UHGV virus genome: UHGV-0143644
Reading direction: 5' to 3' (one strand)
Origin: a virus
Length of the DNA: 26,059 bases
Under the pieces are notes generated by a model that made no database searches, had not been told where the DNA came from, and worked only from the letters and a program-made list of their open reading frames with translations. Shown here piece by piece: positions 23,652-24,170 of this stretch; within the stretch, counting starts at the first letter, position 1, and each line of letters opens with the position of its first letter. The position numbers and the translations under genes were made by a program.

Positions 23652-23793
23652 CCACAAATCTGTGGTTTTTGAGAGCCACTTTCACAGCGGCTTTCCATTA
23701 CAAAGCTCATCTCCGGGTGGGCTTGATAATGGATATCCCACTGAGCGGATAAATCAAAAATAACCCCTGCAACGGATAATGACGGAGCAACAA

Positions 23794-24165
23794 ATGGCAA
23801 AAGCCAAATGGCACAGACTTCCGGCATTCACCATTCCGCTGTTTCAAAGTGCGCATGTCTACCTCGCAACAACCAGAGAACAGTTTCAGCACGCTGATAA
23901 ATTCCTTGGCGGCAGCGGGGATGAGAGGCCGTTTAACTCTGGACTGGCAAGCAACTATGAAAACACCGATACCGGAGAGCGTTGCTACCTGATCGGAGTA
24001 TTCGATAATCAGATATCCACGCTCGTTCATGAATGCGCTCACGTATGCTTTTACGTTTGCTGTGATGTCGGCGTGACAACCAAGCCGGAAGACGCCAACG
24101 AAACGTACTGCTACATGCTGGATCGCATGTTCAGTCACTTCCTGCCATACATCAAACAGGAATAA
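23794..24165 (+). CDS. Small protein with HExxH motif (123 aa), putative zinc metallopeptidase-like
   Basis: LVHECAHVCFY contains HExxH; GGAG Shine-Dalgarno 7 nt upstream; immediately upstream of the small terminase subunit. Confidence 0.6.
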   Translation: MAKAKWHRLPAFTIPLFQSAHVYLATTREQFQHADKFLGGSGDERPFNSGLASNYENTDTGERCYLIGVFDNQISTLVHECAHVCFYVCCDVGVTTKPEDANETYCYMLDRMFSHFLPYIKQE

Positions 24166-24170
24166 ACAAT

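Follow-up and report, generated by a model that had tools for sequence, protein, structure and literature searches.

What kind of protein does a lambdoid prophage encode immediately in front of the gene for its small terminase subunit (TerS), and is this protein a part of the packaging machinery whose genes follow? The question is raised by the virus genome UHGV-0143644, of which the entire stretch of 26,059 nucleotides (referred to here as the window) was analyzed. Between a gene for a Rha-family regulator and terS, at positions 23652-24170, it holds a small open reading frame (ORF) whose product carries the sequence HECAH, a version of the HExxH motif of zinc metallopeptidases. A preliminary description of this interval had viewed the product as a small metallopeptidase, as a metal-binding packaging accessory in the position where many cos-type phages carry an HNH endonuclease, or as a cargo gene in the hotspot between the lysis and terminase genes. 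Our analysis confirmed the underlying observation and partly supported its interpretation. With moderate confidence, we favor the view that the HExxH protein is a zinc metallopeptidase of the zincin-like (gluzincin) type that resides in the cytoplasm and consists of one domain standing alone, and that hairpin, leader and ORF (23694-24165) together form a cargo cassette which assorts independently within the late operon.

The gene encoding the HExxH protein is real and subject to purifying selection. Across 10 homologous loci, substitutions at codon positions one, two and three of the plus-strand frame amount to 89/76/399. The mechanical ORF call starts at an upstream ATG (23779) and yields a 128-amino acid form; yet a Shine-Dalgarno sequence (GGAG; 23784-23787) is positioned 6 nt 5′ of the second ATG (23794), and most homologs, including those called by NCBI, comprise 123 amino acids and start with MAK.KW. 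Hence, the 123-amino acid form (ORF 23794-24165) is the likely product, and residue numbers given below refer to it unless noted otherwise. It was correctly placed by the preliminary description immediately upstream of terS, from which it is separated by 5 nt. The predicted protein has a mass of 14.1 kDa and is acidic (pI 5.6). An ORF running antisense to the gene (23707-24285; 192 amino acids) was considered and rejected, as it is interrupted by one to four stop codons in 6 of the 10 homologous loci and the third-position substitutions track the plus-strand frame. The first base past the Rha gene is 23652, so that the interval singled out initially also takes in a 142-nt leader in front of the ORF. 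A simple consensus scan detected neither a sigma-70-like site in this leader (23652-23793) nor a terminator between the HExxH ORF and terS; the gene is therefore probably expressed from the late transcript.

The HExxH protein belongs to a family that is already catalogued in the PHROG collection, yet is uncharacterized. The 128-amino acid form matches phrog_1365 ("unknown function") with an E-value of 2e-35, residues 5-127 aligning with positions 2-118 of the 127-position profile. Among isolated phages, tblastn searches recovered orf-129 of ST64T, Orf129 of phage L, gene 70 of ε34, hypothetical proteins of the mEp021 group, and hkcC of HK620 and P22; amino acid sequence identity is 58% to the proteins of ST64T and phage L and 33-34% to hkcC. 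Orf129, gene 70 and hkcC are true homologs of the HExxH protein, with which they share their length and the invariant residues; hkcC differs in that its gene resides in the "ant moron" of the immI region and not before terS, and all of them are annotated only as unknown or hypothetical. A word-indexed protein search retrieved 218 close relatives, all of them labeled "hypothetical" save for one that carries an automatic "SprT-like" label. An exhaustive profile search found 648 representatives of 50%-identity clusters at E ≤ 1e-3 (216 at E ≤ 1e-10), and another search, which started from a distant subgroup, added 153 further proteins, none of which has a Pfam domain. Members of the phrog_1365 type are nearly all stand-alone proteins of 105-140 amino acids. 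Pfam revealed no fused domain in the 10 longer relatives that were checked; these possess charged tails or mis-called N-termini or starts instead. In a search of the literature, phrog_1365 did not turn up at all, and neither hkcC nor orf129 was the subject of a functional study. Neither Pfam nor NCBIfam contains a family that the HExxH protein matches above threshold, and no family of PADLOC-DB defense proteins was matched at E ≤ 0.01. The assertion that an HNH signature is missing was borne out by searches for HNH or His-Me finger families in Pfam, PHROGs and NCBIfam, none of which returned an HNH match. The phrog_1365 family fits the known zincin kind, yet is part of no curated family.

The pattern of conservation within this family converges on a few residues. 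Close relatives have many fixed positions in common, three cysteines among them. When the comparison was extended to 73 relatives with 26-50% identity, invariance was confined to G50, H79, E80, H83, and E103; F70, T76, G93, and Y107 were nearly invariant and C106 was present in 64 of the 73 sequences. A second alignment comprised 12 sequences with 23-58% identity from temperate, N4-like, T7-like and Zobellviridae phages (ST64T, HK620, prophages of Yersinia and Pasteurellaceae, metagenomic phages, a T7-like phage of Pseudomonas putida, GP100, the N4-like phage Bp4, and Ralstonia phage RSB3) and left M1, G50, H79, E80, H83, E103, and Y107 unchanged throughout. The HExxH motif is kept in 255 of 263 collected relatives, and of the eight sequences without it, seven have fewer than 110 amino acids and one has 128. 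A chance HExxH could turn up in one of about 60 ORFs; the occurrence of this motif in the protein studied here does not look like a chance event, since it is retained in nearly all relatives and is invariant in all alignments. The second histidine and the conserved glutamate are spaced by 20 residues in 180 relatives and by 19 in 28, and the position +3 from E103 is occupied by Cys, Ala or Thr. H79 and H83 are putative metal ligands, E80 is the putative general base, and E103, which is located 20 residues after H83, is the putative third metal ligand.

The cysteine-rich stretch CFYVCCDVG, to which the preliminary description had drawn attention, is indeed present at residues 85-93, but the emphasis put on it was misplaced, as the stretch is specific to the lineage. 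In the wider family, C85 is mostly replaced by T or A, C89 mostly by L, and C90 mostly by D, G or E. A second metal site formed by these residues was ruled out because the cysteines are not conserved across the wider family. The polypeptide ends 20 residues past E103 and is devoid of a Cys4 ribbon.

An AlphaFold2 model, built from a 43-sequence alignment, has a mean pLDDT of 86.6 and a pTM of 0.81. The predicted elements (β 11-13, β 21-25, α 28-37, β 50-56, β 63-69, α 74-91 with the HExxH motif, and α 103-120 with E103) follow the order β-β-α-β-β-α-α, in which the two presumed catalytic helices come after a small sheet and its N-terminal helix. Structure prediction, which had been named as a check at the outset, thereby yielded a topology in agreement with the core of zincin-like metallopeptidases, which combines a small sheet and an N-terminal helix with subsequent helices carrying HExxH and a metal-binding Glu (PMC5512222). 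Gluzincins are recognized by a "glutamate helix" of the type (E,H)xx(small) with a helper Tyr (PMC7213743). In the HExxH protein, the HExxH sequence is situated on a predicted helix, the invariant glutamate follows on the next predicted helix in an (E,H)xx(small) context, and the predicted topology is that of a zincin core. As far as sequence and predicted fold go, the suggestion of a small metallopeptidase is therefore upheld. When the model was compared with BFVD by Foldseek, 26 phage proteins reached E ≤ 1e-3, of which one is labeled SprT-like and most others are uncharacterized; labels found at E-values of 2e-3 to 3e-3 read metalloprotease, IrrE, PolyVal metallopeptidase, and, for a second time, SprT-like.

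Among known systems, two zincin-like domains from conflict proteins of phages and plasmids, the metallopeptidase (MPTase) domain of polyvalent proteins and the C-terminal domain of ArdC, resemble the HExxH protein in several respects. Shared features are the HExxH helix, the Glu on the next helix with a small residue at +3, the conserved Tyr, the sheet with its N-terminal helix, and carriage by phages and mobile elements; one of the BFVD neighbors mentioned above is labeled as a PolyVal metallopeptidase. In contrast to the 123-amino acid, stand-alone domain studied here, the MPTase and ArdC domains are embedded in large multidomain proteins and are thought to process a polyprotein or to act after injection, whereas the HExxH protein shows no match to them at the sequence level and is probably expressed late rather than delivered with the virion. 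A protease as small as this is feasible: the minigluzincins proabylysin and projannalysin (about 105-110 amino acids) are stand-alone, minimal gluzincin catalytic domains with HExxH and Glu. We infer that the HExxH protein binds metal and is proteolytic. If it works as gluzincins do, a single metal ion would be held by H79 and H83 of the active-site helix together with E103 at the start of the next helix, and E80 would activate a metal-bound water molecule. Y107 may help to stabilize the substrate or the transition state, and the β-strand that starts at G50, a candidate substrate-binding edge strand in the model, would line the substrate cleft. The product would probably be made late, from the Q-dependent transcript that also covers the lysis and packaging genes.

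The genomic placement of the gene bears on its role as cargo. In each of 80 enterobacterial viral loci (80/80), it lies inside the interval between Rz and terS, often 5-6 nt before terS. Nucleotide homology with E. coli prophages is confined to a cassette of about 470 bp that extends from position 23695 to the stop codon of the ORF. Genes found upstream of the coding region for an identical protein vary and include Rha genes of several sizes, a T5orf172/GIY-YIG gene, and other lysis cassettes; a homolog of the Rha gene present here occupies the upstream position in only 3 of the 80 viral loci. On the other side, copies that are 93-94% identical precede, with a gap of 6 nt in each case, unrelated genes belonging to phrog_51, phrog_1206, phrog_309, the P22 gp3 type, or a phrog_513/phrog_546 pair. 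The genes 3′ of the HExxH gene represent no fewer than four unrelated families of small terminases and several families of the large terminase subunit (TerL). As regards conservation and synteny with the small terminase, which had been proposed as a further check, the gene is kept near terS in the enterobacterial loci, but its terS partners change.

Relatives of the gene also occupy other accessory slots. P22 possesses a single copy in immI beside sieA and none before terS, and hkcC of HK620 is likewise located in the immI region; several phages hold both copies. In the genome paper on ε34, hkcC is described as a gene of unknown function and its region as a moron in rapid flux (PMC2629481). 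Outside this group, where many contigs proved too short to show a context, the family member of a Pasteurellaceae prophage follows the replication genes O and P, that of an unrelated lineage directly precedes genes for an SU10-type portal and TerL, and that of Pseudomonas putida Autographiviridae is placed between the DNA ligase and RNA polymerase genes. GP100 and contigs of 65-72 kb carry it among small ORFs near the genome start, N4-like phages near the genome end, and further copies were found in Vi1-like and jumbo phages. In virulent phages, the gene is positioned among early or DNA-metabolism genes, far from the terminases. In a metagenome-assembled 62-kb contig (JAWVHB010000876.1; L108:2493-3088), the stop codon of a gene for an 85-amino acid Acb2/Tad1 hairpin-domain protein (E 4.1e-17) overlaps the start of a gene for a 112-amino acid HExxH family member, an arrangement that suggests an anti-defense gene pair. 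Morons of lambdoid phages are expected to come and go independently of the flanking modules, to take no part in morphogenesis or lysis, and to possess a promoter and a terminator of their own (PMC2629481); the first of these properties was found for the cassette, the second would probably apply to it, and a promoter and terminator of its own were not detected by the consensus scan. Collectively, the independent assortment of the cassette from both of its flanks and the presence of paralogs and relatives in other accessory slots agree with the notion of a cargo gene in the lysis-to-terminase hotspot.

Several points weigh against the HExxH protein being a peptidase that is carried as cargo. All source names within the family are either "hypothetical" or derive from automatic labeling, and no curated family reaches its own threshold (SprT-like and TIGR04267 both stay below theirs). 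Similarity of the HExxH protein to zincins among the solved structures is not significant: PDB sequences gave only chance-level matches to the family profiles (DHFR and the metzincin myroilysin, E 0.08), and hhalign, when used to compare the 73-relative alignment with E. coli SprT/YggI, aligned the six columns of the motif with a probability of 5.9%. The assignment to the superfamily is consequently drawn from the motif, its spacing and the predicted topology, and comes without a statistically significant match. Metal enzymes that are not peptidases also bear HExxH and a carboxylate. Furthermore, the regular placement of the gene right before terS in enterobacterial prophages, with its gap of 5-6 nt, is not accounted for by a pure cargo model. 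Finally, the link to anti-defense stands on the one adjacency with an Acb2/Tad1 gene, which makes counter-defense a hint only.

We have weighed four other explanations. The one that survives best, although we judge it to be unlikely, holds that the protein is a metal enzyme other than a peptidase, such as an amidase or hydrolase whose substrate is a small molecule or nucleic acid, or an HExxH-type hydroxylase dependent on Fe and alpha-ketoglutarate, or else a non-catalytic, metal-binding inhibitor of a host factor. The best NCBIfam match is in keeping with this explanation, since TIGR04267 (aKG-HExxH peptide beta-hydroxylase; E 0.0022) aligns with residues 76-104 and takes in both the HExxH motif and E103; solved peptidases produce no significant match, and a protease of this length would be a very small one. 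However, the match to TIGR04267 scores 18 bits against a threshold of 40 and covers 29 of the 177 profile positions, the predicted topology is that of a zincin core, and the minigluzincins demonstrate that zincin domains of a similarly small size are functional. Binding of metal alone is disfavored by E80, the presumed catalytic base, which is as invariant as the ligand residues and hence argues for catalysis.

A role as packaging accessory is quite improbable. According to this explanation, the HExxH protein would work with the small or large terminase, either in the functional place that the HNH endonuclease takes in HK97-like cos phages or as a protease that strips proteins from the DNA ahead of the motor. 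It shares with that endonuclease its small size, a putative dependence on metal, and a late-operon gene that directly precedes terS, and HK97-type cos packaging machinery needs HNH. The constant placement between Rz and terS in the enterobacterial loci, the apparent co-transcription with terS in the absence of an intervening terminator, and the position directly before portal and TerL genes in an unrelated lineage likewise speak for a connection with packaging. Against it stand the properties of the protein itself, which is acidic and has neither an HNH or other nuclease signature nor a DNA-binding domain. The neighbors differ as well: they are Terminase_2 and Terminase_6 proteins and a DUF4055 portal, a module that we take to be of the headful type, unlike the HK97-type cos machinery. 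Nor is the gene tied to one terminase family, given that it is followed by non-homologous small-terminase families and by several TerL families. Its paralogs reside in immI, and its relatives in virulent phages are far from the terminase genes. Most instructive are the Salmonella phages P22, ST64T, ε34, and L, whose assembly genes are more than 90% identical (PMC2629481): ST64T, ε34 and L have a copy before terS, unlike P22. As the gene is absent beside the well-working terminase of P22, its product is not a required packaging cofactor, and we infer that it has no morphogenetic role. The initial proposal of a metal-binding packaging accessory in the HNH position of cos phages is thus contradicted by the distribution of the gene.

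The two explanations that remain place the protein in a particular peptidase family; both are very improbable, and both fail the family tests. An ImmA/IrrE-like derepression protease would cleave a repressor or regulator, perhaps together with the upstream Rha protein, and thereby act in the lysis-lysogeny decision or in superinfection control. Proteases of this type are HExxH+E gluzincins of mobile elements (PMC7213743), one BFVD neighbor is labeled IrrE, the paralog hkcC is situated in the immunity I region of P22, and a Rha gene is found directly upstream in the window, in some of the contigs encoding an identical protein, and in a Yersinia prophage. Nevertheless, Peptidase_M78 (PF06114, ImmA/IrrE) was matched by just 1 of 73 members (E 0.099), the upstream neighbors are variable and only rarely homologous to this Rha gene, the HExxH gene belongs to the late operon and is not located beside an XRE or cI repressor gene, and the virulent phages carrying relatives have no repressor to cleave. 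A protease of the SprT/Spartan/Wss1 type would target proteins that are bound or crosslinked to DNA. Enzymes of this type have the HExxH helix and the broad zincin class in common with the protein, one relative and two BFVD neighbors bear an automatic "SprT-like" label, and SprT-like (PF10263) is the sole Pfam family to recur, with sub-threshold matches to 13 of the 73 members (best E 1e-4). The HExxH protein itself, however, reaches 13.2 bits where the cut-off is 25.6, in an alignment restricted to residues 73-90, lacks a zinc-ribbon or DNA-binding sub-domain, and has Glu instead of the His of the SprT-like family (E. coli SprT/YggI, Spartan, Wss1) as its putative third ligand.

The left edge of the cassette is formed by a conserved hairpin within the leader (Table 1). 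The 142-nt leader folds with −49.2 kcal/mol, compared with −33.5 kcal/mol for shuffled controls (RNAfold; z −4.4), and neither the leader nor its hairpin has a match in Rfam. The core of the hairpin, CATTNCARAGC-N(8-24)-GCTYGATAATG, occurs once in the window, where none is expected by chance; it was found in 45 fetched loci, invariably on the coding (plus) strand, and in 147 phage records, including those of HK022, HK97-like, ES18, Stx, and P22-like phages. It precedes different genes of the Rz-terS interval, and in one locus it lies on both sides of a cassette. The homology shared with E. coli prophages begins at the hairpin (23695). Among 20 distinct copies, 92.4% of the cells are paired, versus 29-43% when the partners are slid, and six pairs change on both sides; the covariation score was reached by none of 500 shuffles. 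The flanks of the hairpin are fixed by the search pattern, and five unconstrained inner pairs hold most of the compensatory changes. G-U pairs are frequent, so that the helix can form on the plus strand only, which points to RNA of the late transcript. Two functions were rejected for this element. As a sigma-70 promoter (TTACAA … GATAAT) it would have a spacer of 21 nt whose length varies among the copies, and as an intrinsic terminator it would lack the T-run that should follow it. The hairpin may be an undescribed RNA element that serves in RNA processing or stability, or a lambdoid recombination "linker" at the boundaries of modules, an idea that reportedly goes back to the HK620 genome paper. 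It marks cassette boundaries in many lambdoid late operons and could help to explain gene exchange at this hotspot. A second, weak terminator-like hairpin was read from the sequence directly after the Rha stop codon and is contained in the minimum free energy (MFE) structure computed by RNAfold; the consensus terminator scan did not call it.

Table 1. Features of the HExxH cassette and of the surrounding window of UHGV-0143644.
Feature	Positions	Strand	Remarks
HExxH-protein coding sequence, 123 amino acids	23794-24165	+	Based on ORF list, Shine-Dalgarno sequence and starts of homologs; stop codon 24163-24165
Alternative ORF, 128 amino acids	23779-24165	+	Mechanical ORF call from the upstream ATG at 23779
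Gly50 (G50)	23941-23943	+	Invariant in the 73- and 12-sequence alignments; start of predicted strand β3 (50-56)
HECAH (H79, E80, H83), residues 79-83	24028-24042	+	Invariant in all alignments; on predicted active-site helix 74-91
CFYVCCDVG, residues 85-93	24046-24072	+	C-terminal half of predicted active-site helix; lineage-specific
N102-E103-T-Y-C106-Y107	24097-24114	+	Start of predicted helix 103-120
Conserved 40-nt hairpin	23694-23733	+	7-bp outer stem, 2x2 internal loop, 9-bp inner stem, 4-nt loop; left edge of cassette
Leader with GGAG (23784-23787)	23734-23793	+	At least 92% identical across close loci; kept together with the ORF
Weak terminator-like hairpin, AACCACA-AATC-TGTGGTT then TTTG	23650-23667	+	Directly after the Rha stop codon, upstream of the cassette
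Rha-family regulator gene	22902-23651	+	Directly 5′ of the leader of the HExxH gene
Small terminase subunit (TerS), 332 amino acids	24171-25169	+	Starts 5 nt past the stop codon of the HExxH ORF
Integrase	2639-3847		First in the gene order of the window
RecT, YqaJ-type recombinase, SieB, N			After the integrase in the gene order
cI-like repressor	10934-11641	−	
Replication proteins O and P			After the cI-like repressor in the gene order
DNA methyltransferase, 687 amino acids	15536-17599	+	After O and P, before NinB
NinB, NinG, then Q	20258-21073 (Q)		
Holin, endolysin, Rz with embedded Rz1 frame			After Q, before the Rha gene

The window represents an enterobacterial lambdoid prophage, as documented by its gene order (Table 1). 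The identity of TerS is provided by matches to PF03592 (Terminase_2; E 1.9e-30) and phrog_51 (E 1.2e-74); the Shine-Dalgarno-like AGGA sequence of terS resides within the 3′ end of the HExxH ORF, and the downstream packaging module consists of a Terminase_6 protein, a DUF4055 portal and a Mu-F-like protein. TerS carries an insertion relative to the Terminase_2 profile, as its residues 76-275 correspond to only 132 profile positions. The inserted segment (residues ~160-225) contains two CxxC pairs (CRYC … CPRC) that may form a zinc ribbon; a weak match to zf-ChsH2 was also returned. If there is any metal-binding packaging feature at this locus, it would be in TerS itself. The 5′ part of terS also harbors a cluster of the sequence TGCGCARA: 6 of its 11 matches in the window (about four are expected by chance) are packed into 52 bp at 24306-24357 on the plus strand. 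They form short tandem units, CTGCGCAAA and CTGCGCAAAAAT, that code for a repetitive AQK/SAQ peptide, and simple scans scored them as terminator-like hairpins on the minus strand. These repeats are a candidate pac site or TerS-binding repeat.

Variation in the gap between Rz and terS extends to genes other than that for the HExxH protein. The gap of P22-like phages holds three small genes, coding for the HExxH protein, a DUF2560 protein and the head-decoration protein Dec, in at least three different orders (e.g., ST64T, L001:2644-3797). Three further genes of the window deserve mention. Residues 128-235, in the C-terminal half of the Rha-family regulator, match the PADLOC candidate defense family PDC-S22 (E 3e-14), while its N-terminal part corresponds to Phage_pRha. 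The 687-amino acid protein of the nin region resembles DNA cytosine methyltransferases, which it matches in several separate stretches, and is probably an orphan anti-restriction methylase. Just beyond the integrase end of the prophage, a minus-strand gene (66-1964) encodes a 632-amino acid protein that combines an N-terminal ShET2 enterotoxin domain (PF07906, E 1.1e-44) with ankyrin repeats at its C-terminus; neither PHROG nor PADLOC families matched it, and the gene resembles those for effectors or toxins.

If the HExxH protein is the gluzincin-type protease that we favor, its target would more likely be a protein of the host or of a competing genetic element, cleaved in the course of host takeover or counter-defense, than a terminase or virion protein, because the family also populates other accessory slots and the early and DNA-metabolism regions of phage genomes. 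A broader proposition, which we put forward tentatively and regard as possible though on the unlikely side, is that phrog_1365 and its distant relatives constitute a pan-phage group of stand-alone gluzincin-type proteases of about 120 residues that serve as counter-defense or host-takeover effectors by cleaving a conserved immune or housekeeping protein of the host. Such a function would explain why only presumed catalytic positions are invariant, why the gene hops from one accessory slot to another (immI, the gap between lysis genes and terS, early regions in N4-, T7-, and Vi1-like phages), why translational coupling links one copy to the gene for an Acb2/Tad1 sponge, and why neither a curated family nor a solved structure is matched.

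For the annotation of phage genomes, our findings imply that the HExxH gene should not be listed as a terminase accessory or as a substitute for HNH. The family to which it belongs is missing from Pfam and NCBIfam and is therefore overlooked by most genome annotation, even though it is present in hundreds of phage lineages, both temperate and virulent, whose hosts are Enterobacterales, Pseudomonas, Ralstonia, Achromobacter, or uncultured. Should the HExxH protein be an active protease, it would be among the smallest protease scaffolds known, and so widespread a proteolytic effector, if it is one, would make a promising candidate for a strategy that phages use in general against the defense or physiology of the host.

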